A DNA stretch of 64,000 nucleotides from Candidatus Levybacteria bacterium RIFCSPLOWO2_01_FULL_38_21 (lineage in GTDB: Bacteria; Patescibacteriota; Microgenomatia; Levybacterales; UBA12049), in contig MFOT01000024.1 of the NCBI GenBank assembly GCA_001782475.1, positions 42,578 through 106,577 of the forward strand, in the 5' to 3' direction. Positions within the stretch are counted from its first letter, which is position 1. Each line of letters opens with the position of its first letter. Positions 1 to 25,023 of this stretch are shown piece by piece. The translations under genes and the position numbers were made by a program. The notes beneath the pieces were generated by a model. The model was given only the letters and a program-made list of their open reading frames with translations, was not told the DNA's origin and searched no databases.

Positions 1-18
1 GCCACGGAAAGATTTAGT

Positions 19-279
19 ATGGAATCTGGTGAGAGGTTAATAAAGAAGTTTTTTAAGAATGTGCAATTGCAAAAATACGCAAGTATAATTTCCGTAGATT
101 CTATTAACCCTTATCTTATCTACTGTAATACACTCCGCTATTTTTGGAATCAAGATTTTTCTGATTCCCAATGGAACGAAGTTATGGAATTTGTGAAAGA
201 GTACTTGCGGGAAATTTTAGCAAGACGTGGAGTAATAAAAGAAAGAAATATTTTTGGCATTTTTTTCGCTACAAGGTAA
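19..279 (+). CDS. hypothetical protein
   Basis: 86-aa ORF with no recognisable motif; sits directly upstream of the nucleotidyltransferase gene. Confidence 0.3.
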   Translation: MESGERLIKKFFKNVQLQKYASIISVDSINPYLIYCNTLRYFWNQDFSDSQWNEVMEFVKEYLREILARRGVIKERNIFGIFFATR

Positions 280-291
280 AAGATTAAGGAT

Positions 292-1002
292 ATGAAAAAA
301 GAAATTGAGGCTGTAATATTGGCGGGTGGACGAGGAAGAAGAATGGGCGAACTTACTGATTCAACTCAAAAATGTTTATTGCCCTTTAAAGACAAGCCAG
401 TACTCTTACATATTTTAGACACGATAAGCGATGCATTCGGATCAGCCAATGTTATAATAGCAACAGGCTATCATGGAGAAGATGTAAAAAAAATAGTTGG
501 AGATCAATATAGAAATATTCAAATAGAATACACCAATTCCCCTGAACAACTTGAAACTCGCAGAAGGCTTCTACTTGCAAAAAACTTACTGAAAGGACCT
601 TTTCTTCTGACTGCCGGAGATATAATTTATAATCCCGAACTCTTAACACAATTAGCTACTTCTTACGAAGCCAATAAAGTAGAAAGTATAATCGGCGCAA
701 TTTCAGTGAGCAGCCTCCACAAAGTAGCCCCTACTCACGCATTGATAGCTGTATCTGGAGGTTATGTAACGGAAATCACTTATCCTCCAACAACTACCTG
801 GCAAGCTAATCAGCTTAGAGAGATGGGTACTGCTTTTTATGATCATGATTTACTGCGCATCGCGGAACAGGCTTCTGCCAGCATTACACAAATAACAGAA
901 TTGATGATAGATGCTTTAAAAAATGGAGGGAAATTCCGAGCCGAACAGTATTTCTCGCAATGGTATCATTTTGCAACCCCAGAGGATTTAGTAAAATCTT
1001 GA
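292..1002 (+). CDS. sugar-phosphate nucleotidyltransferase (NTP_transferase family)
   Basis: N-terminal ILAGGRGRRMGELTDSTQKCLLPF matches the G-x-G-x-R signature of glucose-1-P nucleotidyltransferases. Confidence 0.7.
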   Translation: MKKEIEAVILAGGRGRRMGELTDSTQKCLLPFKDKPVLLHILDTISDAFGSANVIIATGYHGEDVKKIVGDQYRNIQIEYTNSPEQLETRRRLLLAKNLLKGPFLLTAGDIIYNPELLTQLATSYEANKVESIIGAISVSSLHKVAPTHALIAVSGGYVTEITYPPTTTWQANQLREMGTAFYDHDLLRIAEQASASITQITELMIDALKNGGKFRAEQYFSQWYHFATPEDLVKS

Positions 1003-1013
1003 AGATAGATAAC

Positions 1014-1040
1014 TCAAGCTCGACTTCTTCCCCGGATATA
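1014..1040. repeat. 27-bp direct repeat, left copy (TCAAGCTCGACTTCTTCCCCGGATATA)
   Basis: Exact 27-nt match with 3957..3983; the two copies bracket a 2.9-kb three-gene minus-strand cassette. Confidence 0.85.
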
Positions 1041-1069
1041 AATCGTAAATATTGGCAACAAACTTCCTT

Positions 1070-2071
1070 TCACCAATTTATACCCTTTTCTACTTCTTGA
1101 ATATACTGGTCAAAAGAATTAATTTCAACAATTGTCTTTCTACCAAAATAAAAAATAAATGCCTTTTTACGGAGAGCTTCATCATCTATGGCCCGACTTA
1201 TTTCAAACAACCATTTTCCATCCTGTCTTTGAATGGTTTGAGTACCAGCGTAAAAGAGCATTTTCTGTTCGTTCTCAGGCGAAATTGGTTCAACTTCCGT
1301 ATACGCTTGGATCATTTCACCGATAAATTGAGCCGCTTGCTGCGGAGTAATATATCCGAAGATGGAAAAGACGGGAATTTGACCGAAAAAGTTAGGTAAC
1401 ATATAGTCAGGGTCTCCAAAGTGGCAACAGTCAAAATCAATAGCCCTGACTGGTGAACCGGAATTGCCGAACAGGACGTTTTTTGGATGTCCGTCAGGCC
1501 AAACAAATTTTTGTTGACTTAAATACGTATTTCGCATCCGCTCTCCCCATGCGGGATATGCTAAATCTACCTCCATCCCCCGCGTCCAAATCTGTTCAAA
1601 CGGCTGCTCAATTGTAGAAAATGGCTGCCAATCGGCAGTTTCCTGTTTTAATTCTGCTAAAAATCTGCCTAGTGCGCGTGCGTGGATAGACTCTGCTTTA
1701 CCTTCAAGTAAATACGGGAAACCAAGTTGCGCATCTTGACCCACATCAGTCATAAGCAATACATCCTGCTCAGGATAAAACTGAAGCACATTCGGAACCA
1801 CAGTGGGAAAAAGCGGATGTAGATAAGTCAAAACTTCTGCTTCGGTGCGTATCCTCGTTTCAGACATAACTTGGCGTATGGGATAAAAGGAATCTCGATT
1901 CCTAGCGTGTTTAATAATTGTTGGTTGACCGTCTAATGCAGCCCTGAAGACCGTTGAAGTGTAACCGCCAGAAAGCAACTCAAAGTTGGTAGCTCTGATA
2001 CCTTGTTCAAATAGAAAAACTTGTAAACCGTCAGCTCCGTCAAGACTATAGGGATATTCTTTCATTTTCAT
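1070..2071 (-). CDS. phosphotransferase-family kinase (APH / MtnK / choline-kinase-like fold)
   Basis: DGHPKNVLFG ... VRAIDFDCCHFGDPDYML resembles the HGDxxxxN catalytic loop and IDFE/D motif of APH-family kinases. Start is probably at the MKMKEY Met (2071) rather than the ORF-track start (2107), because the next gene ends at 2046. Confidence 0.55.
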   Translation of the reverse strand: MKMKEYPYSLDGADGLQVFLFEQGIRATNFELLSGGYTSTVFRAALDGQPTIIKHARNRDSFYPIRQVMSETRIRTEAEVLTYLHPLFPTVVPNVLQFYPEQDVLLMTDVGQDAQLGFPYLLEGKAESIHARALGRFLAELKQETADWQPFSTIEQPFEQIWTRGMEVDLAYPAWGERMRNTYLSQQKFVWPDGHPKNVLFGNSGSPVRAIDFDCCHFGDPDYMLPNFFGQIPVFSIFGYITPQQAAQFIGEMIQAYTEVEPISPENEQKMLFYAGTQTIQRQDGKWLFEISRAIDDEALRKKAFIFYFGRKTIVEINSFDQYIQEVEKGINW

Positions 2072-3137
2072 TCGATTTCGCTTTCCAGTCTGGCCCAATA
2101 GATACAAGCGAAATAGCTGTCCTAAATTTATTTATGTCTATAGCTCCGTCGGTTGTTAGTGGTATAACTTCCCGCGTTTGTAGGAAGCAAGGAACCGCTG
2201 CTAATCCTACTGGCGTGGGAACGACCCGCATATGAATTTTGCGGCAGTTACCGCAATCCAAATCAGCGCAATGATCTTGAAAAAACTTGACTGCGGGTTT
2301 GGTTTTATCAGGATTTCCAGGCTCATGAAGATATACCTGGTTGAGTGATGGATAATAGTATGGCTCAAGATCAAATAAGTCGGCAATGTCGTTAAGTAAA
2401 GCCAGATATGCCTGTCTGGTTTCGTATTTAGTGCCCATAACTCCGTTGACTTCCAAGATATGTGTGGTCATAACTGGGCGATGCTTCATAGCCTCTCGTA
2501 GTACACTTAACACTCGTTCTTCATTGCCGGCATATACCACATTAATCTTTATGTCTCGGCCAGGCGTTTTCTCAAACTCCCCAGCTAAGGGAACTACTAC
2601 GTCCTGAAAAAGCTTGCGTCCCTCCGCACCGATAGTAGAATGATAAGGTTTAGACATTTCGCCTTCAATAAGTGAGTCAATGCCCAACGTTACTCTTTGA
2701 AGCGGAGAATCAACCATCATTGCTAGTTTTCGAGGACTTAAAAACGGAATCCCGTTAGTACTGATTCCCCATCTAATTCCTGGAAATTGCTCTTGCCAGT
2801 CATTACTAAGATTTCCAAGCAAAGTTTCTAAATGCCGGTATACTCCTGGATCACCGCCAGTCAACTTAATTGACTTAACTCCGAATTGCTGGGCAGTAGC
2901 GACTAATTGACCAATTGAATCTACGGAAACATCATATTCTGAAAGTTGTTCCCGTTTAGCCCAAGGAGGCGGTTGGCCTTCGTTGTGACAGTGTGGGCAA
3001 CGCAAATTACATCTAGGCGTGACTGACAGACGCAGATTGCGTCTACCTGGCATAACCGTTGGGGATGTTTCGACCTGAATTTGCTCAGGCGGAATGTTTT
3101 GAAAAACTTCGTTAGTAATTCGCTCTTTCATATACAC
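2046..3137 (-). CDS. radical SAM enzyme, MoaA/twitch-like, with a C-terminal auxiliary Cys cluster
   Basis: CNLRCPHCHNEG is a CxxxCxxC motif; KLTGGDPGV and GISTNG are MoaA-like; a second Cys cluster CADLDCGNCRK...C lies near the C-terminus. Confidence 0.7.
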   Translation of the reverse strand: MYMKERITNEVFQNIPPEQIQVETSPTVMPGRRNLRLSVTPRCNLRCPHCHNEGQPPPWAKREQLSEYDVSVDSIGQLVATAQQFGVKSIKLTGGDPGVYRHLETLLGNLSNDWQEQFPGIRWGISTNGIPFLSPRKLAMMVDSPLQRVTLGIDSLIEGEMSKPYHSTIGAEGRKLFQDVVVPLAGEFEKTPGRDIKINVVYAGNEERVLSVLREAMKHRPVMTTHILEVNGVMGTKYETRQAYLALLNDIADLFDLEPYYYPSLNQVYLHEPGNPDKTKPAVKFFQDHCADLDCGNCRKIHMRVVPTPVGLAAVPCFLQTREVIPLTTDGAIDINKFRTAISLVSIGPDWKAKSNENERISL

Positions 3138-3904
3138 GCAAGTATTGCTTTCGTCGATTTTTGATTTGTAACCAAAGTACTTTCTGAGTCTAATGTCCAG
3201 GCCCTACCATCAAGATCTAAAATTTCGCCGCCCGCTTCTTTGATAATGGACCATGCCGGGACAATTGCATAACGATCGGAATAATTATTTACCATTGCCT
3301 CAAGCCTTCCATGAGCCACATAGCAGATTGTTAATGCGACGGAACCGATGGCTCGTACAGTACATCTGCGACCAAGAGATGTAAACAAACGCACACCTTC
3401 CTCAATTTTTGCTTTACCCCTGCGCTTTTGCCAATCGACATTAATAAAAGCATGTTCGCCAAAAGGCCTTCGGGATACTGATATTTTTTTTCCGTTGCAA
3501 AAAGCACCTGTATGTTTTTGACCAATATATAGCTCGTCAAGCATTGGATCATATACGACTCCAAAAATTGGTTTTTTATTACGTATCAACCCCACCGCTA
3601 CCGCAAAGCCTGGTAGTCCATGGATAAAATTTCGTGTATTAGAAAGTGGATCGATATACCATTCGAACTCAGACGAGTTGGGCATTATGCCAGACTCCTC
3701 GCTGTAAACTGTATGGCTTGGATAAACAGCGGTAAGCGTTTTTATAATCAGTTTTTCAATCTGCGTATCAAAAGCGGTAACATAGCTTTGTTTTTCTTTT
3801 AGGGTATATCGTATCTTACTATCACAATTATTTCGAAGAAGAACACCTGCATCCCTAACAGCATCTATAACAGTCTTGTACATATATAAAAAAATCAGTG
3901 TCAA
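3128..3904 (-). CDS. inositol monophosphatase family phosphatase (IMPase / SuhB / CysQ-like)
   Basis: WYIDPLSNTRNF matches the WxIDPLDGT metal-binding motif; FGVVYDPMLDELY follows downstream. Start may instead be the MYKTV Met at 3883. Confidence 0.65.
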   Translation of the reverse strand: MTLIFLYMYKTVIDAVRDAGVLLRNNCDSKIRYTLKEKQSYVTAFDTQIEKLIIKTLTAVYPSHTVYSEESGIMPNSSEFEWYIDPLSNTRNFIHGLPGFAVAVGLIRNKKPIFGVVYDPMLDELYIGQKHTGAFCNGKKISVSRRPFGEHAFINVDWQKRRGKAKIEEGVRLFTSLGRRCTVRAIGSVALTICYVAHGRLEAMVNNYSDRYAIVPAWSIIKEAGGEILDLDGRAWTLDSESTLVTNQKSTKAILACI

Positions 3905-3956
3905 TTATACCAAATAGCACAAGGAAATGCGCGGATTCTAAAGCTGCAAAAGAACA

Positions 3957-3983
3957 TCAAGCTCGACTTCTTCCCCGGATATA
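3957..3983. repeat. 27-bp direct repeat, right copy
   Basis: Identical to 1014..1040. Confidence 0.85.
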
Positions 3984-4038
3984 CCTCCCCATAGCTTCGG
4001 TTCTTGACATTAGTCTTGATCTTGCCTAACATAAAAGA

Positions 4039-4758
4039 ATGGATACTAATCAGCTTCCTCAAGAACCACAAAAAAGGAAATTCAGCGGGCTATTGTTTTT
4101 GGAGGTTGGTTTAATTGAGGTATTCTCTGTTATTCTTGCACTGCTCCTGATTTTTGGAACCCTTAACTATTTTGGCATACTCCCCATCTCCGAATCCCTC
4201 CCCTTTCTTTCCTTTCTTCCGCAGAAACAAAAAACAATTACGAATAAAACTGTAAAAACCAGCACTCAATCAAAATCAAACAAGCAGTTGCCTATAGAGA
4301 TATTAAGAACCATCCCTGTCGTTGGCTGCCCAGTTGAACAAAATTTGTGTACGAATGGCGTAACTATTCCAGAATCTAAAGAAAATACCGCATCGCTTTC
4401 CGCAATCGCCTATAATTTAGAACAAGGGGCCACAGTCTCGGCTGTGATGAATGGTGATATAGAAATAAAAAATGAAAACATAAATGGACAAAAGCTGCTT
4501 ATATTAAGCATTATAAATAAATCAAGAAATATTAAGGTAAATTATGAATTTGAGATCAATTCATTCAGATATACAGCTTCTCAAGCTAATAAGACTGAGC
4601 AAGGAAAGGTCTTGGGGAATATAGTTGGTGAAGACACGATCAATCAATTTGGCAATAAATTTAATCTGATCTTTTCTGTCCAAAACCTAAATGCTCTCCA
4701 GTACCTCAAAATAAAACCTTCCCCAGACGGTAAAGGAATCCTCAACACTGGATTTTAA
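4039..4758 (+). CDS. hypothetical membrane-anchored protein
   Basis: N-terminal hydrophobic helix LLFLEVGLIEVFSVILALLLIFGTL; no catalytic motif. Confidence 0.35.
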   Translation: MDTNQLPQEPQKRKFSGLLFLEVGLIEVFSVILALLLIFGTLNYFGILPISESLPFLSFLPQKQKTITNKTVKTSTQSKSNKQLPIEILRTIPVVGCPVEQNLCTNGVTIPESKENTASLSAIAYNLEQGATVSAVMNGDIEIKNENINGQKLLILSIINKSRNIKVNYEFEINSFRYTASQANKTEQGKVLGNIVGEDTINQFGNKFNLIFSVQNLNALQYLKIKPSPDGKGILNTGF

Positions 4759-4919
4759 TTTTTAGTTCTTGACACAAATTTAGAATCCCATCTCTTGGAT
4801 AGTAGAATCGTACCAAAACACCCCTAGGGTATGCTCAAGAAAACTTCTTTAAAGTCTTACCGATGTGATCAGCCAGAACACTCCCTTGACTCACCCAAGA
4901 AACATGGTAAAATAATAGT

Positions 4920-5162
4920 ATGAATCAGACAATTACCGTATCTCAAGAAACAATCGAGGAAATTCTTACTCGTCTTGACAGACTCACTAGAGAAATAAAA
5001 GCTATTAGGACAAAACTTTTTGAAGAGGAACCGCCCTATGGAAGCGACGAGTGGTGGGAATGGTCTGATAAAAAATCGATCGAAGATTACAAAAAAGGTC
5101 GCTATACAGTGATTCGTTCAAAAAAAGAACTTAATGAATTTTTTAGTTCGTTAGGAAAATAA
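4920..5162 (+). CDS. putative antitoxin, partner of the RelE/ParE-like toxin
   Basis: 80-aa ORF; its stop lies 1 nt before the toxin gene start, the usual antitoxin-toxin gene order. Confidence 0.4.
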   Translation: MNQTITVSQETIEEILTRLDRLTREIKAIRTKLFEEEPPYGSDEWWEWSDKKSIEDYKKGRYTVIRSKKELNEFFSSLGK

Positions 5163-5163
5163 A

Positions 5164-5424
5164 GTGAAACAAATTCTTCTTACAAAAGGGACTGAGAGAT
5201 CTTTTAAACGGCTTCCAAAGAAGAATCAAGAAAAAACCAAGAAACAATTTGAACTTTTATTAGCCAATTATCGTCATCCTTCGCTTCGAGCACGCAAAAT
5301 GCCCGGAGCAAACTATTTCGAGGCAAGAATTGATATACACTACCGTTTTACTTTTAGTTTAGTGAGGAAAGGAATTTTAGTTCTGACTATTGGTCCCCAC
5401 GATGAAGGGTTAGGGAAAAAGTGA
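5164..5424 (+). CDS. RelE/ParE-family type II toxin
   Basis: C-terminal RKMPGANYFEARIDIHYRFTFSLVRKGILVLTIGPHDE follows the RelE/ParE pattern (G..L.e.R...YRiiy...d..v.vl.igHR). Confidence 0.6.
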   Translation: MKQILLTKGTERSFKRLPKKNQEKTKKQFELLLANYRHPSLRARKMPGANYFEARIDIHYRFTFSLVRKGILVLTIGPHDEGLGKK

Positions 5425-5473: not shown

Positions 5474-6262
5474 ATGGGGAATAGAATTGAAAAATCTCCA
5501 AGAAGAATGTCGAGAAGAAGGTTATTGAAGTTAGGAGGCTTGGCGGCTGGTGCTGTCGTCGCTAGCGCTTTGCTTGAAGCCTGCGGAGGCGGAGCTGAAA
5601 CGACAACTCCAAACCCAACTGCAGATGTATTGAAAACGGAAAGCCCGATGCCATCGGCAACCCCTATGGCAACCCAAGCTGCCGAATCCCCCATCCCAAC
5701 TGCTATTAGCACAGCGAAGCCGCCAGAACCAACCCCAACCCCAACAGAAGTATCTAAAGCCCCAGTCAATTGTGAAGTTCTCCCCCAGGAATTCTGCTCC
5801 CAGGGAAAAAGAATAACAATGGAACTTCAAGGGGAAAAACATGAGTACATTGCATTCAATTTACCCCCAGGTACTCCTATTCTTGCTCGATTTGATGGTC
5901 TTTTAGACAAAATCGAAGAGAGCGGTGATCCATTTTCCGGCTTTAGCGCAGTACTGACGCCTGATAACTATAGATCCTTTGATATTGCTAGAGGAGATAT
6001 CCATTTCGACGATATGATACAAAGGCAAGTAAGGCAGGGCGATGTAATTGGCTATGTGGGTGATGCAGGCATCAAGAATTTTGACTACAATGTTCTTTAC
6101 CTAATTAGTACTGCAAGTCCTGACGGACCGATTATTGATGAAGGAAAAATGAAGGAATTGTTTCCCGAGGCATTTGAAAAGGAGAGTGTAGAGATTACGT
6201 ATAATGGCCCTGTTAACCCCCCAGTATCCTACGACTATTCCTCTACCCCTCCAGGCCAATAA
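5474..6262 (+). CDS. Tat-signal lipoprotein with a degenerate (non-catalytic) LytM/M23 peptidase domain
   Basis: SRRRLLKLGGLAAGAVVASALLEAC is a twin-arginine signal with lipobox; a PT-rich linker follows; the C-terminal domain (HEYIAFNLPPGTPILARFDG ... QGDVIGYVGDAGIKNFDYNVLYL) aligns to the M23 HxxxD and G.IGyvGsTG..HLHFE motifs but lacks the catalytic Asp and His residues. Confidence 0.5.
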   Translation: MGNRIEKSPRRMSRRRLLKLGGLAAGAVVASALLEACGGGAETTTPNPTADVLKTESPMPSATPMATQAAESPIPTAISTAKPPEPTPTPTEVSKAPVNCEVLPQEFCSQGKRITMELQGEKHEYIAFNLPPGTPILARFDGLLDKIEESGDPFSGFSAVLTPDNYRSFDIARGDIHFDDMIQRQVRQGDVIGYVGDAGIKNFDYNVLYLISTASPDGPIIDEGKMKELFPEAFEKESVEITYNGPVNPPVSYDYSSTPPGQ

Positions 6263-6337: not shown

Positions 6338-6910
6338 ATGGGGGTTTTATTTAAAAAACCAATTTTTTGGATTGGAATAATTATTGTATTAATAATTGGG
6401 CTTCTAATCCTTGTTCTCCAATCTACTAGTCCTAAGAATCTCAAAAATATTTCTCCAAAAATATCTGAGAAATCAAAATCAGGGCCAAAGCCCGGAACCT
6501 GCCTTATCTTAGAACAAAAATTCTGCTCCCAGGAAAAAAGAATAACAATAGAAGTTCAAGGGTTAAAACATGAGTACATTGCCTTCAATCTGCCCCCTGG
6601 CACTCCTCTTTTTGCTCGATTTGATGGTCTTTTAGACAAAACTAAAGAGAGTGATGCTCCATTTTCTGATTTTAGCGCGTCACTAACGTTTAATAATTAC
6701 AAATCTTTTGATATTATCAGAGGAGATTTTAGTTTCGACAGCATGCTACAGAAAAACGTAAAACAAGGCGAGATAATTGGCTATGTGGGCGATACAGGCG
6801 TCAAAGACTTTGGTTACAACGTTCTTTATCTAATTACTACTGCCGGCCCTAACGGACCGATTATTGATGAGGGAAAAATGAAAGAGTTATTTCCCAAGGT
6901 TCTAAAGTAA
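6338..6910 (+). CDS. membrane-anchored paralog with a degenerate LytM/M23 domain
   Basis: N-terminal TM helix; its C-terminal ~150 aa are near-colinear with 5474..6262 (HEYIAFNLPPGTPLFARFDG ... QGEIIGYVGDTGVKDFGYNVLYL). Confidence 0.5.
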   Translation: MGVLFKKPIFWIGIIIVLIIGLLILVLQSTSPKNLKNISPKISEKSKSGPKPGTCLILEQKFCSQEKRITIEVQGLKHEYIAFNLPPGTPLFARFDGLLDKTKESDAPFSDFSASLTFNNYKSFDIIRGDFSFDSMLQKNVKQGEIIGYVGDTGVKDFGYNVLYLITTAGPNGPIIDEGKMKELFPKVLK

Positions 6911-6911
6911 T

Positions 6912-9900
6912 ATGAAGTTAAGCAAATTTTTGGCTGTCCCCGCAGTAACTTTTCTATTTTTTGTCTTCTTATCTGGCAGTGCCTATGCTTCTTTCTCTTA
7001 CTCATACGATTCCTCTCCGCCCTCCGCCGACCAGGTAGCTGATTCATTCTGCGCTGGCTCCATCCAGACTTGTTGGAACAGTTCGTCTGTTGGTGTAACA
7101 GATTGTGGAACTGCTTGTACCGGCGGTAACGCCTGGGAAAAGCATGTATATTCAGGCTGTTATTATGTAGCTTTTTTAGGTTATAAGGCATGGCTTCCAT
7201 TTGCATCCGCTACCTGCTCAACCGGGGATAAGTGTACGAGTAGTTGGCCTTATCTAAACGCTGGATATTGCGATTGCTCAGTCGGAGGCATATATAAAAC
7301 CTGCTGTGATACTACGACAGGAAGAGCTGATGGGGCTTGCGTGGCATATGCTGTTGATACCACAAATCCTCCATGGGAAGGTTATTGTCCTGCGGGAACA
7401 GCGACGGAGTTCTGTGGCTTCGGAGGCTATCCTGCCTGCGGAGATGCGGCTTGCGCAAAGTACGCCCCCCCTCCAGATTGTAATACTGGGGTTTCTTGTT
7501 CTGGAGCCTGCAGCGCGCCGGCAAATACCTGCTCTACAAATAATGGAACGCAAACAAGCTGTGTCTATACAGCCTACAGCGGAGGAGGATCCTGCACTCA
7601 AACAACTGCTCCCAACCAACAATGCACAGTTAATAATTGTTCTGCGGGATATACTTGCCAGAGTGGCATTTGTACGGCAGGACCGAATCCTCCTACTGCC
7701 GCAATCAACGGACCCACTTCCATTACACTTGGCCAATCAGGCAGCTTTACTGCAACCGCCAACCAAGACTCAACCAGTTCGCTTGCATCCGGAGAAATTT
7801 ATTGGTCGCCAACCGGTTCTCAATCCTGGACTCTTCTTAATCCCGTAGCTGCGCTTTCGGGCTCAACTGGGTCATTTTCCAGAACGTGGACTCCGACTGC
7901 TACCGGTACTTACTACGTAGTTGTCAACGCTTACAATGTAAATGGCCAACAATGCACAGGTAATCCTTTCGGGATTGATCCCGGCTGGGTTAATTGCGGA
8001 TCAAACGATGCTGTAACTGTCACAGTCACAACTGTAGCAGCAACCCCAACCCCAACTCCCACACCTGCCTCTTCATGCAATGCTGCGTGCATTGCAAGTG
8101 GTTATTATTATGGAATATGCCAAGGTGCATGCGGTGGAAACTATGATGGATCGCCTAGTCAATATGAATGTGCAAGTAATATTGGTGCACCTCTTTGCTG
8201 TTGTTCACGTGTGCCAGCCACTCCAACTCCAACCCCGACTGGCGCTCCAACTCCCACTCCAACTCGAGCTCCCTCAACATACGACATTTCTGGTACTGTT
8301 TGGGTAGATACCAATGGGAATGGGTTTAAGGACATATTAGAAGATGGATTCCAGAGCGCTCGCATAACCATAACCGGCGGTGCTTTTAGGAATACAGACA
8401 ACTCTGGATTTTACCTTTTTTCAAGTCTAGCTTCCGGAACATATACAATTACTCTTACTGTACCTTCTGGCTATATCTTAACCACTTCAAATCCTGTCAC
8501 CAGAACCCTCCCGAACAATGCCACAGCTAATTTTGGGATACAACCCCTATCAACCATCTCTGGAACTGTATTTGTGGACACTAATGGGAGTGGGGCTAAG
8601 GACACAGGAGAACCGGGATACAGCGGGGCTACCCTAACCGGACCCGGCGGTGAGACTGATACTACAGGCGCCAGTGGATCTTACGGTTTTCCAGGTCTAG
8701 CTTCCGGAACCTATACAATTACTCTTACTGTACCTTCTGGCTATATCTTAACCACTTCAAATCCTGTCACCAGAACCCTCCCGCCCGATGCCACAGCTAA
8801 TTTTGGGATAAGATTCAACAAGCCAGACCTGGTTGTCTCAAATCTTAGTGTCCAGTCGGTTGCCGCAGGCCCGATAACACCAAGAGATGGCAGTAGCTTT
8901 GATACCAATGGCGGCTCGGGCGCAAGTTGGTCAAATCCAACCTATGCTCAGACTTCCAATAGCCAGCGCGCCTCTGTTTCACTGGACGGTAATCCCAGTT
9001 CCCGTTATCTTAAGGCTCAAGGCTTTGGTTTTAACATTCTACCCGGTTCTACCATCAATGGTATTCTCGTTGAGGTAGAACGCAGGGCCGAAGAAGAAGG
9101 CTGGGGCGGCAATCCCAGAATAGTAGATGATGTCATCAGACTTGTCAAAGCCGATGGAACAATTGGCGGAAGTAACAGAGCAGGCAGTAGTTACTGGCCA
9201 GAATCGGATGCTTATACAAGCTATGGCTCAGGTACCTACCTGTGGGTCCTAACCTGGACACCGGCCGATATCAATAATTCCAATTTTGGGGTGGCAGTCT
9301 CGGCCAGGAATGAGGGTGATGACGCAATTGCATACATTGACCATATCCGTATCACGGTGTATTTAGCTTCCGAAGCAGGAGAGTCGTTAGAAGCAGTCTT
9401 TACCTTAAAAAATAACAGTTCTATTACCACGCCACCCGGGGTTAATTTTAGGATTGATCTTTGGCCGGACCGCACCAGCTCTCCCAATCTTGGAGAACTA
9501 AGTGATTGTACCCCGACCCCTTGTAAGATAGACCAAACAGAAATGGCCGCCAATGAACAGAGATCCGTGACTATACCTTTCACCGCTCCCTTAACCGCTG
9601 GAACAAAGACGGTCCAAATTTTGGCTGATTCGCCGGACGTCATTGACGAAATGGAGGAGTTAACTAATAATAGGATATCTAAAATCTACTTTGTTACTGC
9701 ACCCCCAACATACACAATTTCTGGAAATGTATTTGTAGACGCCGATAAAAATCGGCTCAAGAATGGAGGGGAGACAAACTACACAGGCGCAATCACTATT
9801 TCCTCAACAGAAGGAACTGTATCTGCTCCCTCTGGTACTGGGGTTTACACTGTAGACGGTTTAATAGAAGGAACATATACAATTTCTTACACAGATCTTC

Positions 9901-10904
9901 CTTCTGGATATCAACTAACATATCCTCTAAACGGTCCCCCGCCCTCTTTTACGGTTACGGTTGGGGCATCTTGTTCTGTTGGCGGTTCAAACAGCGCAAC
10001 TTGCGGTGGAGGAAGCATTTCAAATCTTAACTTTGGCATAACCAATTCAAATCCATGGATCCAGTCAACCTGTACAGATATAAGATTTGATACTGGCTTT
10101 GATGACCCCATACCAATAACCGCTGATCCTGTTCTCTGTGGCGGGCCAAATGCATCTATCAATGCATCTATTTCAGTCGTTTGCACAACTCCGGGAATCA
10201 TTATGTCTGGAGACAGCTCATATTCCTTTGGTCAAGGACAGGCCTCATCTACGAACTGGGTCGTGGGGGGAACTACCTATCCGGAAGTTTTTGCTCCCAC
10301 AAGAGGAGGCGGCTTTGCAACTTCTTACGCATATGTCTTATCTGTTATAAAACAAGCAGGTCTAACACCAACGGATCTTTCAACCGTATGTACCCTTTCA
10401 AACTGCACTTTACCCGCAGGATTTTCTCACGGTCTTTACAAGGCAAATTCTGATCTCTACCTTAACGCTTTTACATTCCTAGCCTCATCAAATTATGTAA
10501 TCTTGGTCAACGGAAATCTCTACATTCGCGGTAAAATCCTCGTACCAAATGGTTCAACCGCAACCTTTATTGTCTCTGGCAACATTTATGTAGACCAAAC
10601 CGTAGGAGAAGCAGTTATTTCATCAACAACCCCTGATATTGAAGGCTTCTATAGTACGGATAAGAGTTTTATAATCCAGGGTACAAACGACTGCATGGTG
10701 GGAGCGGATTTACGACTAAATGTTGCCGGCACAATTGTAGTTAATGCAGGACTTACGGGCGGATCATTCCAAAACTTAAGAGATCTTTGCGGAGGAAATC
10801 TTTCCTGTCCTGTATTTTCGATATCAGAAAGGCCAGATTTTATTCTAAATGCTCCGGAGGTAATAAAAAGACAGAATGCAATTTATCAGGAAGTAGCACC
10901 CTAG
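6912..10904 (+). CDS. giant secreted/cell-surface protein (1330 aa) with Cys-rich N-domain, PT linkers and tandem Cna-B/SdrD-B-like repeats
   Basis: Signal peptide MKLSKFLAVPAVTFLFFVFLSGSAYAS; about 40 Cys in the first 400 aa; linkers ATPTPTPTPASS and PATPTPTPTGAPTPTPT; two near-identical repeats ...SGTYTITLTVPSGYILTTSNPVTRTLP..ATANFGI... (DNA 8404-8530 and 8665-8800). Confidence 0.6.
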   Translation: MKLSKFLAVPAVTFLFFVFLSGSAYASFSYSYDSSPPSADQVADSFCAGSIQTCWNSSSVGVTDCGTACTGGNAWEKHVYSGCYYVAFLGYKAWLPFASATCSTGDKCTSSWPYLNAGYCDCSVGGIYKTCCDTTTGRADGACVAYAVDTTNPPWEGYCPAGTATEFCGFGGYPACGDAACAKYAPPPDCNTGVSCSGACSAPANTCSTNNGTQTSCVYTAYSGGGSCTQTTAPNQQCTVNNCSAGYTCQSGICTAGPNPPTAAINGPTSITLGQSGSFTATANQDSTSSLASGEIYWSPTGSQSWTLLNPVAALSGSTGSFSRTWTPTATGTYYVVVNAYNVNGQQCTGNPFGIDPGWVNCGSNDAVTVTVTTVAATPTPTPTPASSCNAACIASGYYYGICQGACGGNYDGSPSQYECASNIGAPLCCCSRVPATPTPTPTGAPTPTPTRAPSTYDISGTVWVDTNGNGFKDILEDGFQSARITITGGAFRNTDNSGFYLFSSLASGTYTITLTVPSGYILTTSNPVTRTLPNNATANFGIQPLSTISGTVFVDTNGSGAKDTGEPGYSGATLTGPGGETDTTGASGSYGFPGLASGTYTITLTVPSGYILTTSNPVTRTLPPDATANFGIRFNKPDLVVSNLSVQSVAAGPITPRDGSSFDTNGGSGASWSNPTYAQTSNSQRASVSLDGNPSSRYLKAQGFGFNILPGSTINGILVEVERRAEEEGWGGNPRIVDDVIRLVKADGTIGGSNRAGSSYWPESDAYTSYGSGTYLWVLTWTPADINNSNFGVAVSARNEGDDAIAYIDHIRITVYLASEAGESLEAVFTLKNNSSITTPPGVNFRIDLWPDRTSSPNLGELSDCTPTPCKIDQTEMAANEQRSVTIPFTAPLTAGTKTVQILADSPDVIDEMEELTNNRISKIYFVTAPPTYTISGNVFVDADKNRLKNGGETNYTGAITISSTEGTVSAPSGTGVYTVDGLIEGTYTISYTDLPSGYQLTYPLNGPPPSFTVTVGASCSVGGSNSATCGGGSISNLNFGITNSNPWIQSTCTDIRFDTGFDDPIPITADPVLCGGPNASINASISVVCTTPGIIMSGDSSYSFGQGQASSTNWVVGGTTYPEVFAPTRGGGFATSYAYVLSVIKQAGLTPTDLSTVCTLSNCTLPAGFSHGLYKANSDLYLNAFTFLASSNYVILVNGNLYIRGKILVPNGSTATFIVSGNIYVDQTVGEAVISSTTPDIEGFYSTDKSFIIQGTNDCMVGADLRLNVAGTIVVNAGLTGGSFQNLRDLCGGNLSCPVFSISERPDFILNAPEVIKRQNAIYQEVAP

Positions 10905-19093: not shown

Positions 19094-19157
19094 TTCTTAC
19101 AATCAAGTCAAGTTAATATCTTTTATCAATTGAGTTAAATTGCTGACCGCAAACGGA

Positions 19158-19192
19158 GGCAATCCCAGTTCAAACGGGGTTGCCTTTTTTTT
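19158..19192 (+). terminator. intrinsic terminator/attenuator hairpin in the 5' leader of the ugd-like gene
   Basis: ggcaatccc-agttcaaac-ggggttgcc forms a 9-bp stem followed by TTTTTTTT. It lies about 60 nt downstream of the promoter and 14 nt upstream of the ATG at 19206. Confidence 0.5.
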
Positions 19193-19205
19193 GCAGGCTT
19201 TATCG

Positions 19206-20456
19206 ATGAATTACAAAAAGATTTTATCTGAAAAAATTAAAACAAGAAAAGCTGTTGTTGGCATTATTGGAATTGGGTACGTCGGTGGAGCACTTGCTCA
19301 AGGAGCTGCTACTGCAGGATTTCGGGTTTTTGGATTCACCAGAAGTACGACCCGCGCTAATCATGTTAACAAACAAAAAATCCATAATTATACCGCTACT
19401 ACCGACATTACTCTACTCTCAAAATGCAGTATCATTTGTATCTGTGTTCCTACTCCGATACACGAGAACAAGTCACCCGATCTTGAACCTCTTCAGGACG
19501 CGCTTTCGAAGACAGCCGAATATTTAAAACCCGGATCACTTGTTATTATCGAGAGCACCGTAGCACCCGGTACCACCCGAAATATTGCTCTTCCAATGCT
19601 TCAGACGTCAGGGTTAAAAAAAGAAGAAGAAGAGTTTTTTCTATCTTTTTCTCCTGAGCGAGTCGATCCGGGAAATAAAAAATATACTATATGTAATACT
19701 CCAAAAGTAGTAGCCGGTTTAAGCAACACATCCAGTGATCTTGCCTGTAAGTTTTTTCAGAGTTTTGTTGAAAAGGTAGTCCCCGTTTCCTCTATTGAGG
19801 CAGCCGAAATGTCCAAGATTCTTGAGAATACGTTCCGACTTGTCAATATAAGCTTTATTAATGAACTTGTTCCATACGCAAAAAGTCTGGGTGTTGATAT
19901 ACATGAAGTGATAAATGTGGCAGCCACAAAACCATATGGATTTCTGCCGCATTATCCCGGTCCTGGGGTTGGCGGACACTGTATCCCAGTTGATCCATAT
20001 TACCTGCTTTCGGATGCGCGAAAACGGGGAATCTCACTTACCATAGTTGAAGACGCAGGTAGAGTGAATGAAGAACAACCAAAAAAAGTAGTCACCAAAG
20101 CTCTTGAGATTTTGAAAAAAACAAACGGACACAAGGCAACTTACAAGGTTTTGCTTCTCGGGCTTACATATAAAAAAGACATCGGCGATCAACGCGAATC
20201 AGCATCGCTTAAAATTTGGAAACTCTTGGAAGAAAAGAATGTCAATGTTTCTTACCACGACCCATATGTACCTTCATGGAACGACCACGTATCTGTGGAG
20301 CTGACCGATAAAACGCTTTCTGAAAATGACGTTATTATTATCACGACAGACCATGAGAATATCGACTATGCAAAACTTACCTCGCATCAAAAGCCTATCC
20401 TTGATACACGTAATGTACTGCGCAAAAACGGTTTTCCGTTTGTGTATGGAATATGA
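19206..20456 (+). CDS. nucleotide-sugar dehydrogenase (UDP-glucose / UDP-ManNAc dehydrogenase family)
   Basis: VVGIIGIGYVGGALA Rossmann motif; GPGVGGHCIPVDPYYL holds the catalytic Cys. The ORF-track start at 19140 lies inside the leader; 19206 is the more likely start. Confidence 0.75.
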   Translation: MNYKKILSEKIKTRKAVVGIIGIGYVGGALAQGAATAGFRVFGFTRSTTRANHVNKQKIHNYTATTDITLLSKCSIICICVPTPIHENKSPDLEPLQDALSKTAEYLKPGSLVIIESTVAPGTTRNIALPMLQTSGLKKEEEEFFLSFSPERVDPGNKKYTICNTPKVVAGLSNTSSDLACKFFQSFVEKVVPVSSIEAAEMSKILENTFRLVNISFINELVPYAKSLGVDIHEVINVAATKPYGFLPHYPGPGVGGHCIPVDPYYLLSDARKRGISLTIVEDAGRVNEEQPKKVVTKALEILKKTNGHKATYKVLLLGLTYKKDIGDQRESASLKIWKLLEEKNVNVSYHDPYVPSWNDHVSVELTDKTLSENDVIIITTDHENIDYAKLTSHQKPILDTRNVLRKNGFPFVYGI

Positions 20457-21394
20457 AACATGTTTTAGTAACAGGCGGCGCGGGTTTTATAGGCGCAAGT
20501 TTAGTTCGAAAGCTTCTTGAAAATGGCGATAAGGTTGTAGTAATTGATAATCTAATTACTTCAAACGGGGAAAGTATTAAACCGCTACTTAAAAATCCCA
20601 ATTTCAAATTTATCAAACGCGACATAATAAAACCTTTGCCTTCATCAATCATCAATCATCAATCATCAATTGGGCATATCTTCCATCTTGCCTGTCCGAC
20701 CGGCGTTCCGAATCTCACAAAACTTGCCAGAGAAATGCTACTTACCTCCGCGATCGGAACAATGAATGTTTTAGAACTTGCCAGAAAACACAAGGCAAAG
20801 TTTATATTCACAAGTTCTTCTGAAGTTTATGGTGATCCCAAAGTTTTTCCGCAGAACGAAAACTATACAGGCAATGTCAGCTCTGTAGGTATTAGAAGTC
20901 CATATGAAGAAGGAAAAAGATTTGCCGAAAGTCTGATTATGACTTACGTTCGAAAATATAATTTGGATGCAAGAATTGTCCGGGTGTTTAATACCTACGG
21001 ACCCCTGATGTCTATTAACGATACGCGCGTTATTCCAAAATTCTTAAAACAAATTAGTAAAAACCAGCCTCTGACAGTTCAAGGAGATGGCAGGCAAACA
21101 AGAACATTTTGTTACGTTGACGATCTAATAAAAGGTTTAGTTCTTCTTATGGACAAGGGGGGGGAGGGCGAAGTTTATAATCTCGGGAGTAACAAAGAAA
21201 TAAGTATAAATACCCTGGCTGGGCTCATGATAAAAATTACAAAATCTAAAAGTAAAACAATAAATATTAGTCGTCCGTCTCATGACCACAACCGCCGTCT
21301 CCCCGACCTGAGAAAAGCAAACAAACTTAATTGGTACACTAAGGTAGGCCTTGATGAAGGTTTAGAAAGGACCGTACGATGGTTTGGGTTTTAG
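20453..21394 (+). CDS. NAD-dependent epimerase/dehydratase (UDP-glucuronate decarboxylase/UXS-like)
   Basis: VLVTGGAGFIGASLVRKL ... PYEEGKRFAE (YxxxK). Contains an in-frame heptanucleotide tandem repeat encoding SSIINHQSSIG. Confidence 0.65.
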   Translation: MKHVLVTGGAGFIGASLVRKLLENGDKVVVIDNLITSNGESIKPLLKNPNFKFIKRDIIKPLPSSIINHQSSIGHIFHLACPTGVPNLTKLAREMLLTSAIGTMNVLELARKHKAKFIFTSSSEVYGDPKVFPQNENYTGNVSSVGIRSPYEEGKRFAESLIMTYVRKYNLDARIVRVFNTYGPLMSINDTRVIPKFLKQISKNQPLTVQGDGRQTRTFCYVDDLIKGLVLLMDKGGEGEVYNLGSNKEISINTLAGLMIKITKSKSKTINISRPSHDHNRRLPDLRKANKLNWYTKVGLDEGLERTVRWFGF

Positions 21395-22602
21395 CGTTCC
21401 TTACGCTTGCAGGATATAATTTTTCTTTTTGGCTAATTGTAGGAATAGCTAGATTTTTGTTCGAGAGAATCCCGCATTCTGATAAAAGAAAGAGGGGTCG
21501 GCCGTCAAAACCAATTTTGCCAAAAGACGTTGCGGCAGTCATTCCCGCGCATAATGAACAACGAACGATCGCAAAAGCAATAAGATCTCTTAGGAAGATT
21601 TTACCTGTGGGAAATATTTATGTTGCTAGCGACTACTCAACCGATAAGACGGTTAAAATTGCCAGATCTTTTAAAGTCAAGGTTTTAGACATTAGACCAA
21701 ACAGAGGAAAAGCAAGAGCATTGGTTTACATAATGAAACGCTATCATCTATTAAGCCGCTTCAAAGCAATAATTATTCACGACGCGGACGTTGAGGTTAG
21801 TAAAGATTATTTGAAAAATGCATTGCCATTTTTAAAAGACCAAAACGTAGCGGCGGTAGCAACTCACGGAGTAACAAGACTTAAGAACTACAAAGTGCTT
21901 GAGAGATTTTATATTACTTATAGGTTGAGACTTTGGAGAATTCTACAATACGGAATGCGTTTTGGTCAGACATGGAAATACACCAATGTAACTTATATCA
22001 TCCCCGGCAGTTTATCTCTCTATAGAACGAGGGTTCTTAAGAAACTTAAAATTGATGCACCTGATCTTATTATTGAAGATTTTAATATGACTTTTGAGGT
22101 GCGCAGAAAAAAACTTGGAATAATTGCCTATAATCCATCAATTTTTGGAGTTCATCAGGACCCTTACACATTTAGAGATTATACTAAACAATTAAGACGC
22201 TGGAATTTAGGTTTTTGGCAGACAGTTAAGAAAAACGGCATTTGGCCAAGTCTTTTCTGGCTTTCTATGGGGTCTTTTCTCATAGAACTTCTTCTTTATA
22301 CGTTTTTCATATTGTCCGTGCCAATTTTAATATTTATTTTCATTCTTCATTCCTTCAATCCGATAAGCATTCCCCTTGTATCATCTTACTTAACATTCCT
22401 TGATCTTCTCATTGGACTATTCCTTATGGATTATGTCCTTACTATAATTGCAGCGGCTGCGGAGAGAAAACCTGAAATGCTTATTTATGGTCTTGGCTTT
22501 TTCTTTCTTCGCTATGTTGATGCTATCATCTATACATATACTCTGCCTTTGGCATTTCTGGTTAAATCGAAGGGCACGTGGAGCAGTCCGGAGAGAAAGT
22601 AA
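21379..22602 (+). CDS. processive family-2 glycosyltransferase (NodC/HasA/PgaC/CesA-like, QxxRW)
   Basis: D, DAD, IEDFNMT (ED) and QLRRW motifs; one N-terminal and about four C-terminal TM helices. Confidence 0.7.
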   Translation: MVWVLAFLTLAGYNFSFWLIVGIARFLFERIPHSDKRKRGRPSKPILPKDVAAVIPAHNEQRTIAKAIRSLRKILPVGNIYVASDYSTDKTVKIARSFKVKVLDIRPNRGKARALVYIMKRYHLLSRFKAIIIHDADVEVSKDYLKNALPFLKDQNVAAVATHGVTRLKNYKVLERFYITYRLRLWRILQYGMRFGQTWKYTNVTYIIPGSLSLYRTRVLKKLKIDAPDLIIEDFNMTFEVRRKKLGIIAYNPSIFGVHQDPYTFRDYTKQLRRWNLGFWQTVKKNGIWPSLFWLSMGSFLIELLLYTFFILSVPILIFIFILHSFNPISIPLVSSYLTFLDLLIGLFLMDYVLTIIAAAAERKPEMLIYGLGFFFLRYVDAIIYTYTLPLAFLVKSKGTWSSPERK

Positions 22603-23667
22603 TTAGAAAAGCAATTTAAGGGCTTTTGTAATGGTAGAAATCTCATCTTCAGTTAAGCTTGGGTGGATAGGAAGAGCAAGGGTCGTATTTGATATATCCT
22701 CTGCATTTGGAAAATCTTTCTTAGGCAATTTCAGGTAACGATGTAAAAGCTGATAGTTTTCAATGGGAATGACTGTTGAGATTCCTTTTTTTGCAAGATT
22801 TAATTTAAACGAATCTCTGGTTTTTTTATCTTTGAATTTAATTATAAAGCGATAGTGATTTAAATTTTTATCCTCTTTTTTTGGCCAAAACTCAATTTCT
22901 TTTTGTTTTTTAAGCACAGGGGTGTATTTCGAAGCAATATATCTTCTTTTCTTAAATAAATTATCAATCCTTTTAAACTGCACATTGCCAATAGCGGCGG
23001 CAAAATCTGTCAGCTGATAATTATATCTTACTCTGTAATTCTTACGACGATCATAATGGATCAGATCTCTGACGATTTTGTAATATTTTTTATTATTAGT
23101 TACAAGCATTCCTCCATGACCCGTGGTTATTACTTTTGTTGCATAAAATGAGAAGATGGTTATGTCTCCGAATGATCCCAGAGGTTTACCTTTATAGAAA
23201 CCTCCAAGAGAGTGCGCACAGTCTTCGACTATCAGAAGTTTAAATTTCTTGATCTCATCGATTTTTGCCGGAAATCCAAGAACATGAGGAACAATAATTG
23301 CTTTTGTTTTCTTATTAATTTTTTTCTTAATCTCCAGAGGATCAATTGTGAACCAATTTTTTTCAATATCTACGACTACAGGAGCAGCACCCATATAATA
23401 TATTGCGTTAAGAAGTGCAGTACAGACATAAGTTGGAACTATAACCTCATCTCCTTTTTCAACCCCGAGTGCGATTAGACTTAGATGAAGAGCGGCAGAA
23501 CCTGAACTTGTCGCAACGGCATATTTTCCTTTGACATAATTTTTAATATTGTTCTCAAGTTTCCTAGCTTCCTTATTTGGTATAAGCCACTTACTCCTCA
23601 GAGTCCTTGCAACTGCTTTTATTTCTTGCTCATCAAGGTAAGGCGTATTATGTAAAATCTGTTTCAT
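22603..23667 (-). CDS. DegT/DnrJ/EryC1/StrS-family PLP-dependent sugar aminotransferase
   Basis: KYAVATSSGSAALHLSLIALGV...DEVIVPTYVC...; the PLP lysine region is conserved. Confidence 0.8.
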   Translation of the reverse strand: MKQILHNTPYLDEQEIKAVARTLRSKWLIPNKEARKLENNIKNYVKGKYAVATSSGSAALHLSLIALGVEKGDEVIVPTYVCTALLNAIYYMGAAPVVVDIEKNWFTIDPLEIKKKINKKTKAIIVPHVLGFPAKIDEIKKFKLLIVEDCAHSLGGFYKGKPLGSFGDITIFSFYATKVITTGHGGMLVTNNKKYYKIVRDLIHYDRRKNYRVRYNYQLTDFAAAIGNVQFKRIDNLFKKRRYIASKYTPVLKKQKEIEFWPKKEDKNLNHYRFIIKFKDKKTRDSFKLNLAKKGISTVIPIENYQLLHRYLKLPKKDFPNAEDISNTTLALPIHPSLTEDEISTITKALKLLF

Positions 23668-23671
23668 AAAA

Positions 23672-25015: not shown

Positions 25016-25023
25016 AATTAAAA

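Follow-up and report, generated by a model that had tools for sequence, protein, structure and literature searches.

A repeat-bracketed operon encoding a MoaA-like radical SAM protein, a kinase and an IMPase-like protein in Patescibacteria

Gene organisation at the locus

A 64,000-nucleotide stretch of contig MFOT01000024.1 from Candidatus Levybacteria bacterium RIFCSPLOWO2_01_FULL_38_21 (hereafter the window) carries adjacent genes for a nucleotidyltransferase, a kinase, a radical SAM protein and an IMPase-like protein, and raises the question of whether these genes together modify a small molecule, as the initial annotation had proposed, and which of them would take part. Pfam searches placed all four open reading frames of the 292-3904 segment where that annotation had put them and in the same families: the IMPase-like protein (ORF 3128-3904, minus strand; Inositol_P, PF00459, a full-length match of 176.7 bits against a 27-bit cut-off), the radical SAM protein (ORF 2046-3137, minus strand; Radical_SAM, PF04055, 60 bits), a kinase resembling MTR kinase (ORF 1070-2107, minus strand; APH-type, PF01636, 36.7 bits) and the nucleotidyltransferase (292-1002, plus strand; NTP_transferase, PF00483, 53.9 bits). 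The longest IMPase-like reading frame opens at a TTG codon at 3904. We revised the gene starts because of orthologue alignments and independent gene calls on the parent contig, where the gene called at the IMPase-like locus encodes 251 aa. The true starts are probably ATG 3883 for the IMPase-like gene (probable CDS 3128..3883, 251 aa), ATG 3131 for the radical SAM gene (2046..3131, 361 aa) and ATG 2071 for the kinase gene (1070..2071, 333 aa). Read from the sequence, the radical SAM start codon overlaps the IMPase-like stop codon (ATGA) and the kinase gene starts before the radical SAM gene has ended, the two sharing 26 nt. The operon is a self-contained, translationally coupled set of three genes in the order IMPase-like, radical SAM, kinase. 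The four genes had been treated as one set; the transcription unit comprises three, and the nucleotidyltransferase is encoded on the other strand and converges on the kinase gene.

The same three genes are set apart by a perfect 27-bp direct repeat, TCAAGCTCGACTTCTTCCCCGGATATA on the plus strand, with an upstream copy at 3957..3983 and a downstream copy at 1014..1040, between the stop codons of the kinase (1070) and the nucleotidyltransferase (1002). Just these two copies were found in the window with 3 mismatches allowed (0 expected), and they bracket exactly the IMPase-like, radical SAM and kinase genes, with no other gene between them. Analogous repeats, unrelated in sequence to those of the window, flank the cassette at related loci L001, L002, L006, L085 and L116. 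The gene for the nucleotidyltransferase, a sugar-phosphate enzyme by family, stands outside the repeats; a methyltransferase gene precedes it on the plus strand of the parent contig, at a distance of 12 nt. The PF00483 domain of the nucleotidyltransferase scored below every equivalog cut-off, and tblastn found no homologue of it within 6-8 kb of any related cassette. We judged it to be a bystander and rejected it as a cassette member on its absence from all related loci, its strand and its position relative to the repeats; its proposed place in the pathway was not borne out.

A candidate extended -10 promoter element, TGGTATAAT (3904..3912, minus strand), was recognised by reading the sequence 20 nt upstream of ATG 3883. 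It has no good -35 box and was therefore not listed by a consensus promoter scan, and the counts from promoter and terminator scans were at chance level. Upstream of the operon no riboswitch or other RNA matched Rfam at E ≤1, the Moco riboswitch included. An ORF pair at 4920-5424 was considered as a toxin-antitoxin system and rejected, with no Pfam or PADLOC support.

Relationships of the three encoded proteins

All motifs initially quoted for the radical SAM protein are present: CNLRCPHC, TGGDPG, STNG and a C-terminal cysteine group (C290, C295, C298 and C317). The cysteines of its SAM-cluster CX3CX2C motif (C43/C47/C50) and of its auxiliary cluster (C295/C298/C317) all align with the ligands of MoaA, and a partial TIM-barrel SAM domain is followed by a Cys-rich auxiliary-cluster hairpin in the manner of SPASM/twitch proteins. 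MoaA of S. aureus (PDB 1TV7/2FB3) shows a comparable arrangement, with a CX3CX2C cluster near the N-terminus and a hairpin that carries the CxxC...C auxiliary cluster towards the C-terminus, and the MoaA-like, twitch-type assignment was supported. MoaA holds two 4Fe-4S clusters, and its three C-terminal cysteines leave one iron site open; C290, a fourth invariant C-terminal cysteine specific to the radical SAM family described here, could close the corresponding site.

Unlike MoaA, to which it is just 20% identical, the protein has a longer hairpin and a conserved N-terminal extension, and it is partnered by a kinase and an IMPase-like protein, not by MoaC. It fell far below the curated MoaA models (TIGR02666, 80.2 vs 284.05; TIGR02668, 72.7 vs 325.25), no family member has the C-terminal Mob_synth_C domain (PF06463) that true MoaA matches carry, and scores drop abruptly between the family, at 134 bits or more, and true MoaA, at 56 bits. 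In MoaA three conserved arginines, R17, R266 and R268, contact guanine, the last two as ligands of its O6 atom, and a C-terminal Gly-Gly motif is essential in the bacterial and eukaryotic enzymes (PMC9026282). MoaA R17 aligns with the invariant R36, R266 with K300 (at least two members have Asn there) and R268 with H302; the protein ends in ...NENERISL, and a GG ending occurs in no family member. MoaA K163 is kept in the family and R71 is replaced by Lys, and some, not all, of the residues that we take to be MoaA triphosphate ligands are kept in the radical SAM protein. No moaC, moaB, moaD, moaE or Moco riboswitch was found at any related locus, nor in the scan of window ORFs, which extended to ~35 kb. 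The protein follows the MoaA architecture, in which a SAM cluster is joined by a second, here putative, auxiliary 4Fe-4S cluster carried by the twitch hairpin, and belongs to a separate small family; the suspicion that it is not a canonical MoaA held on the TIGR02666 score, the lack of Mob_synth_C and the missing Arg pair and GG tail. Few radical SAM enzymes have been studied as closely as MoaA; we found no description in the literature of a sister family with the same two clusters and a different substrate pocket, and characterising the cassette enzyme would show how the MoaA scaffold gets retuned.

The kinase has intact motifs (GGYTS loop, K54, DGHPKN and IDFD) and superposes best, over its full length, on MTR kinase, with APH(9) scoring 14.6. 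A profile of its remote relatives matched B. subtilis MtnK over the full length (E 7e-18), aligning the C-terminal R-x-x-G of the kinase with the RRxxG of MtnK, and the catalytic D-x-x-x-x-N and Mg-binding D-x-D of MtnK (PDB 2PYW, 2OLC) are also shared. The kinase is predicted to adopt the fold of MtnK, with its helical C-terminal domain for substrate binding. Identity to MtnK is, in contrast, 13-14%, and a phmmer search of the PDB gave no match. The MtnK equivalog TIGR01767 scored 25.7 bits against a cut-off of 275 and matched residues 81-161 only, in line with the earlier view that by sequence this is no housekeeping MtnK; among the neighbours scanned there was no mtnA, mtnB or mtnN.

The IMPase-like protein is 30-36% identical to bovine IMPase, Aquifex FBPase/IMPase and SuhB, and it keeps the Glu-Glu motif, the first Asp of DPxD, the Thr and the EAGG motif of that family; it scored under every NCBIfam equivalog cut-off (107-137 vs 275-332; HisN 137 vs 275). 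It departs from the family at Mg site II, where DPLSNT replaces DPxDGT and Y-A replaces W-D. The Mg-II ligands of human IMPase are Asp90, Asp93 and Asp220 (PMC4954947). The equivalents of Asp93 and Asp220 are Ser and Ala here, so that both ligands private to Mg-II are lost, with the Mg-I ligands (Glu and the first Asp) and the conserved Thr retained. DPxSNT was present in 17/17 orthologue clusters and Ala stood in place of the Asp of WD in every cluster with a readable second motif, whereas all next-nearest relatives with a readable motif were canonical; just ahead of the lost Asp lies an invariant NNYSD segment. The protein may be catalytically dead, and the dephosphorylation step of the initial proposal became doubtful, as every orthologue lacks the two private aspartates. 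With Mg site II removed by evolution and the rest conserved, the protein offers a natural test of the IMPase mechanism, for which the involvement of two or of three metals is disputed.

Conservation across related loci

The order of the trio was identical in 10/10 complete related loci (L001, L002, L006, L007, L084, L085, L116, L167, L168 and the parent contig), all of them on Patescibacteria-type contigs and with a different genomic context in each lineage. The kinase (16 clusters) and IMPase-like (17 clusters) families lie in the cassette wherever context could be read, and in their small size they match the Patescibacteria branch of the radical SAM family. The trio looks like an accessory cassette carried by a small number of Patescibacteria, and its insertion looks recent. 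We looked for an unoccupied site and found none: each of the three contigs that share an identical nucleotidyltransferase also has the cassette. Phage and plasmid collections contained no family member. The combination had been called unusual, which the neighbourhood analysis upheld: it is conserved on these contigs and matches no curated pathway model, and our literature search returned no relevant report of it or of MoaA-like paralogues. As a compact accessory function in reduced genomes, the cassette bears on how such organisms acquire metabolism.

Relatives of the radical SAM protein at 40-46% identity occur in quite different contexts, one beside an uncharacterised 460-aa protein and a small membrane protein and another beside a SPASM radical SAM protein and a GT4 transferase; in soil relatives a conserved small protein with a PPWCxAC motif follows. 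The soil-lineage 460-aa partner had no PDB, Pfam or NCBIfam match and was rejected as a kinase homologue (hhalign probability 0.1%). No conserved small peptide ORF was found in or beside the Patescibacteria cassette. Three phosphatase or phosphatase-like folds accompany the radical SAM family at some loci, namely the IMPase-like protein in the cassette, PF04029 at L167 and PF13350 at L164 and L128. A kinase gene stands alongside the phosphatase-like gene in the cassette, an arrangement that is not by itself a pathway.

Possible function of the cassette

We tentatively favour the reading that the repeat-bracketed operon directs radical tailoring of a phosphorylated metabolite that resembles a pentose or a nucleotide. 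A phosphorylated small molecule is our best guess for the substrate because phosphatase or phosphatase-like genes of three folds accompany the family, joined in the cassette by a kinase. We infer every chemical step of the scheme, in which the radical SAM enzyme would abstract a hydrogen atom from an anionic phosphorylated metabolite of this type, held in a basic pocket beside the auxiliary cluster, and would rearrange or redox-edit it. The kinase would phosphorylate a hydroxyl group on the sugar of either substrate or product, probably at the anomeric position by analogy with MTR kinase, and the IMPase-like protein would bind a phospho-intermediate, either going on to hydrolyse it with a changed metal requirement or doing no more than bind it. 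The relatives of the radical SAM protein occur in differing contexts, and the family may therefore not share one common substrate. Incomplete retention of the presumed MoaA triphosphate ligands likewise counts against the scheme. More ambitiously, and with little expectation that all of it is correct, the cassette could be a mobile, self-sufficient module that starts from a universal metabolite, either a purine nucleotide or a 5-substituted ribose derived from SAM, and makes from it a novel modified nucleotide or pentose phosphate through an undescribed radical reaction of a MoaA-derived enzyme; the IMPase fold without Mg-II would then be a non-hydrolytic or mechanistically altered partner, and the product would act in Patescibacteria either in defence or in symbiont-host interaction.

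Other functions were weighed against the tailoring of a phosphorylated metabolite. That the trio is a protein or peptide modification system, the twitch radical SAM enzyme installing a cross-link or other change and an LxmK-like kinase phosphorylating Ser/Thr, would fit the PPWCxAC protein of the soil relatives and the SPASM protein paired with other relatives; it is unlikely, given that the repeat-bounded segment holds three genes only, that the kinase superposes full length on MTR kinase and that we know of no role for an IMPase fold in peptide maturation. A mobile defence or antagonism module that makes a modified nucleotide or antimetabolite, comparable to prokaryotic viperin-kinase pairs, is distinctly unlikely. 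The cassette is self-contained, repeat-flanked and variable in context, and at one locus the neighbours are an MmeI-type methylase and a protease with weak matches to defence models, but the family is missing from the phage and plasmid collections, there was no sign of a phage connection, and PADLOC returned nothing for the partners. For the radical SAM protein PADLOC returned weak pVip matches (30 bits, E 8e-8) that amount to generic radical SAM similarity, on which grounds a known defence system was rejected. The curated viperin model NF038283 scored 28 bits vs 180, and the kinase is MTR-kinase-like, not a nucleotide kinase as in the viperin pairs.

The cyclitol or aminocyclitol pathway of the initial annotation would have the phosphatase release inositol, a BtrN/SpeY-like radical SAM enzyme oxidise it, an APH-type kinase phosphorylate it and the nucleotidyltransferase activate it. 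Adjacent IMPase-family, APH-family and twitch radical SAM genes speak for it, as do the PF13350 phosphatase and GT4 transferases that accompany the radical SAM family in other branches, the weak best matches of the transferases including MshA, an inositol-phosphate glycosyltransferase. It is nevertheless improbable: the nucleotidyltransferase is not conserved with the cassette, the kinase is nearest to MTR kinase, the Mg-II ligands are missing, and the cassette has no inositol-phosphate synthase, dehydrogenase or aminotransferase; nor are BtrN and SpeY, aminocyclitol dehydrogenases, the closest relatives of the radical SAM protein in fold or sequence. Least credible, and very improbable, is a set of housekeeping genes, with MoaA for molybdenum cofactor, MtnK for methionine or 5'-deoxyadenosine salvage, and SuhB/IMPase. 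The fold matches are indeed to MoaA and MtnK, and "MoaA" is the JGI pipeline name for family members, a public label that would wrongly imply molybdenum-cofactor synthesis in these genomes. Against this stand the widely missed equivalog cut-offs (80 vs 284, 25.7 vs 275 and 107-137 vs 275-332), the absence of the MoaA Arg pair and GG tail (PMC9026282), of a Moco riboswitch or other Rfam match and of moa or mtn genes among the scanned neighbours, and the tiny size of the families, which are confined to the cassette; canonical MoaA, MtnK and SuhB identities were rejected on the curated cut-offs and motif tests.

A partial parallel may be drawn with GDP-heptose-type sugar activation, which uses the kinase HddA, the phosphatase GmhB and the nucleotidyltransferase HddC, and whose NDP-sugar logic resembles the kinase and phosphatase pairing here. 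Its enzymes differ in fold from those of the cassette and include no radical SAM step, and the nucleotidyltransferase beside the cassette, which weakly matches the HddC and MurU models, is not conserved with the trio.

Gene organisation and conservation of the cassette

All four open reading frames that the initial annotation had assigned to named families were present, each with a domain match: an NTP_transferase domain protein on the plus strand (292-1002) and, on the minus strand, an APH-type kinase (ORF 1070-2107), a radical SAM protein (ORF 2046-3137) and an Inositol_P family, IMPase-like protein (ORF 3128-3904). The motifs it had quoted (CNLRCPHC, TGGDPG, STNG and the C-terminal cysteines) were likewise all found. 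The true starts are probably ATG 3883 (IMPase-like), ATG 3131 (radical SAM) and ATG 2071 (kinase), judging from alignments of orthologues and from genes called independently on the 106-kb parent contig; the products are then 251, 361 and 333 aa long, respectively. On this revision the stop codon of the IMPase-like gene shares bases with the ATG of the radical SAM gene (ATGA) and the kinase ATG lies 26 nt within the radical SAM gene, an arrangement that marks the three minus-strand genes as one predicted translationally coupled operon. Reading of the sequence alone placed a TGGTATAAT element 20 nt upstream of ATG 3883; no Rfam family, Moco and SAM riboswitches included, matched within window positions 1-5000.

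Relatives of the radical SAM protein were gathered from protein, genome and metagenome collections, and their neighbourhoods were compared by tblastn, ORF clustering and contig look-ups. The order IMPase-like, radical SAM, kinase, on one strand and with genes overlapping or abutting, was found in every relative of at least 54% identity with a long enough contig (loci L001, L002, L006, L007, L084, L085, L116, L167 and L168), and partial copies at five further loci (L005, L086, L126, L152 and L158) were compatible with it. Titled records were from Candidatus Levybacteria or "Patescibacteria group" MAGs, with the exception of one labelled Gammaproteobacteria, which is probably a binning error. 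That the unit consists of three coupled genes, is conserved and is restricted in its distribution can be taken as shown, as can the fold assignments of its products. The initial annotation was right to suggest a radical SAM cassette of a non-standard type in a genome that is reduced, and our literature search turned up no publication describing the radical SAM family or the gene combination.

Flanking repeats and the adjacent nucleotidyltransferase gene

Reading of the intergenic DNA showed that TCAAGCTCGACTTCTTCCCCGGATATA occurs at 1014-1040 and again, unchanged, at 3957-3983; this perfect direct repeat of 27 bp encloses exactly the three cassette genes. Even with up to 3 mismatches allowed, the 64 kb contain no further copy, and 0 are expected by chance. 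Recombination between them would leave the transferase gene followed by 93 nt and then a co-oriented 239-aa gene at 4039. In six loci the cassette is flanked by direct repeats 26-66 nt long: the window, L085 (28 nt, 100% identity), L002 (32 nt, 94%), L001 (26 nt, 92%), L116 (three copies of 53-60 nt, 90-94%) and L006 (66 nt, 86%). None were found in L007, L084, L167 or L168. The copies match perfectly in the window and in L085, and their sequence is unrelated from lineage to lineage; the genes surrounding the cassette also differ in every lineage. The pattern hints at an insertion that duplicated a target or attachment sequence, and the repeats may mark the insertion site of a mobile cassette. 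However, the cassette carries no recombinase of its own, no empty site was found among contigs sharing the nucleotidyltransferase, and no copy of the cassette was found in phage and plasmid collections.

The initial annotation had counted the nucleotidyltransferase as a fourth member of the set. Its stop codon (1002) falls outside the flanking repeats, and tblastn detected no homologue within 6-8 kb of the cassette in any related locus; the unit therefore comprises three genes. On the parent contig the transferase gene starts 12 nt after a methyltransferase gene, also on the plus strand. The ORF at 19-279 is the 3′ tail of this methyltransferase gene, which encodes 277 aa and extends beyond the start of the window.

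The radical SAM protein

The only domain match of the radical SAM protein was the generic PF04055. When 5.8 billion protein clusters were searched, approximately 110 scored at least 134 bits, and the next scores, at 56 bits, belonged to true MoaA proteins; among representative genomes of 185,579 species, family members occurred in just five loci. The family signature runs CNLRCxHCHNEGQxxPW, FTGGDPG, TNG, IGIDS, SKP, NGVMG, FYQDHCxDxDCGNCRKIHxRVxPT...AVPCFLQ and NGxGPxW. As in MoaA, C295, C298 and C317 align with the three auxiliary-cluster cysteines and R36 with MoaA R17. In contrast to MoaA, the family has no Mob_synth_C domain, Lys/His replaces the Arg266/Arg268 pair that contacts guanine O6, the C-terminal GG motif that is essential in bacterial MoaA (PMC9026282) is missing, and there is a fourth invariant cysteine, C290. 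The protein also scored 80.2 bits against the MoaA equivalog cut-off of 284. Together these comparisons argue that the enzyme has MoaA architecture and is not a GTP 3′,8-cyclase, which sets aside the canonical MoaA that the initial annotation had named as the ordinary explanation. The analogy with BtrN drawn in the initial annotation is also wrong. By the same motif and score tests, the label "molybdenum cofactor biosynthesis enzyme MoaA" given by JGI pipelines to the related proteins P0012, P0021 and P0024-P0105 is probably a misannotation.

Outside the cassette, the radical SAM family clearly has different partners in different lineages. Many relatives of 40-43% identity came from soil contigs, two of them binned as Bradyrhizobium (L008, L009 and L088-L163; e.g. 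L091:4288-5658 and L091:7218-7628). In these the radical SAM gene has a neighbour on either side. The product of one neighbour, ~460 aa long, is highly conserved and matches nothing in Pfam, NCBIfam or the PDB; that of the other, ~125 aa long, has a membrane helix at its N terminus, a linker rich in Pro and Arg and, C-terminally, a conserved DFSINxPPWCxAC motif. These three genes make up a separate system, itself uncharacterised. In another conserved context, relatives of 45-46% identity were paired with a SPASM radical SAM protein and a GT4 glycosyltransferase (L164:1645-5669, L165:2553-5799, L087, L114 and L128), with an additional PF13350 tyrosine-phosphatase-like gene in L164 and L128. In L167, the closest relative whose contig exceeds 5 kb, a gene for a ComB-like 2-phosphosulfolactate phosphatase (PF04029) comes after the cassette and overlaps its kinase gene; another radical SAM gene, truncated by the end of the contig, lies beyond it (L167:3937-5632). 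In L003 the radical SAM gene is divergent from a cluster of sugar-transferase, HIT-like and DegT aminotransferase genes. Phosphatases of three folds and glycan enzymes are the themes that recur across these contexts.

The kinase and the IMPase-like protein

The sequence of the kinase hardly reveals its family: it scored 36.7 bits for the APH domain and 25.7 bits against the MTRK equivalog cut-off of 275, failing the housekeeping MtnK assignment that the initial annotation had offered as an alternative, and phmmer found no match in the PDB. Its family consists of 16 clusters, with identities of 54% or more throughout. When 1.84 billion representatives were searched exhaustively with HMMER, one was found at family level (542 bits), and the next relative scored 183 bits. 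The MTRK model was the most frequent match among the remote relatives, whose profile aligned over its full length with Bacillus MtnK (E 7e-18), the C-terminal R-x-x-G motif included; this alignment identifies the protein as a predicted MTR-kinase-like small-molecule kinase. Neither of two remote relatives looked up was linked to a radical SAM gene.

The IMPase-like protein is a clear member of PF00459 (176.7 bits) that fell under every NCBIfam equivalog cut-off. Aligned with bovine IMPase, Aquifex FBPase/IMPase and SuhB, it retains the Glu-Glu motif and the equivalents of Asp90 and Thr95, whereas Asp93 is replaced by Ser, Gly94 by Asn and Asp220 by Ala; in human IMPase the Mg-II ligands are Asp90, Asp93 and Asp220 (PMC4954947). 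The family comprises 17 clusters of at least 283 bits, with the next score at 144 bits. DPxSNT occurs in 17/17, and Ala stands for the canonical Asp in every cluster with a readable second motif; next-nearest relatives with a readable motif were all canonical (DPxDGT and [W/H/C/Y]D). The aligned motifs thus demonstrate Mg-II ligand loss across the family. An invariant NNYSD precedes the lost Asp, and its own Asp might compensate. It is predicted that the protein either works as a phosphatase whose metal requirement has changed or binds without hydrolysing, which weakens the dephosphorylation step of the initial annotation.

Candidate substrates

The cassette represents a variant, so far uncharacterised, of enzyme types already known. 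Basic residues kept near the auxiliary cluster, the presence of a kinase in the unit and the nearby phosphatase or phosphatase-like genes suggest that its substrate would be a phosphorylated small molecule, and the closest folds, a GTP-using enzyme and a ribose 1-kinase, point to one that is likely pentose- or nucleotide-like. We favour radical SAM chemistry on such a molecule, tentatively and at somewhat less than even probability. Action on a protein or peptide seems unlikely, and a defence or antimetabolite module, which would overlap the favoured small-molecule model, quite unlikely. The cyclitol pathway of the initial annotation, now without its nucleotidyltransferase, is very doubtful. 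Housekeeping roles are extremely improbable; the proteins failed the tests for belonging to MoaA, MtnK and canonical IMPase.

Other features of the window

Two abutting small ORFs of 80 and 86 aa (4920-5162 and 5164-5424) resemble a toxin-antitoxin pair, a reading for which no Pfam or PADLOC match was found. The gene group at 5474-6262, 6338-6910 and 6912-10904 includes two paralogous secreted-looking proteins that have a long conserved C-terminal half in common and no Pfam match, beside a 1330-aa Cys-rich surface protein with SdrD_B domains. A glycan-modification cluster at 19140-27540 encodes UDP-glucose/GDP-mannose dehydrogenase, NAD epimerase/dehydratase, GT2, DegT aminotransferase, GH8, GH18, WbqC-like and PIG-L deacetylase proteins.
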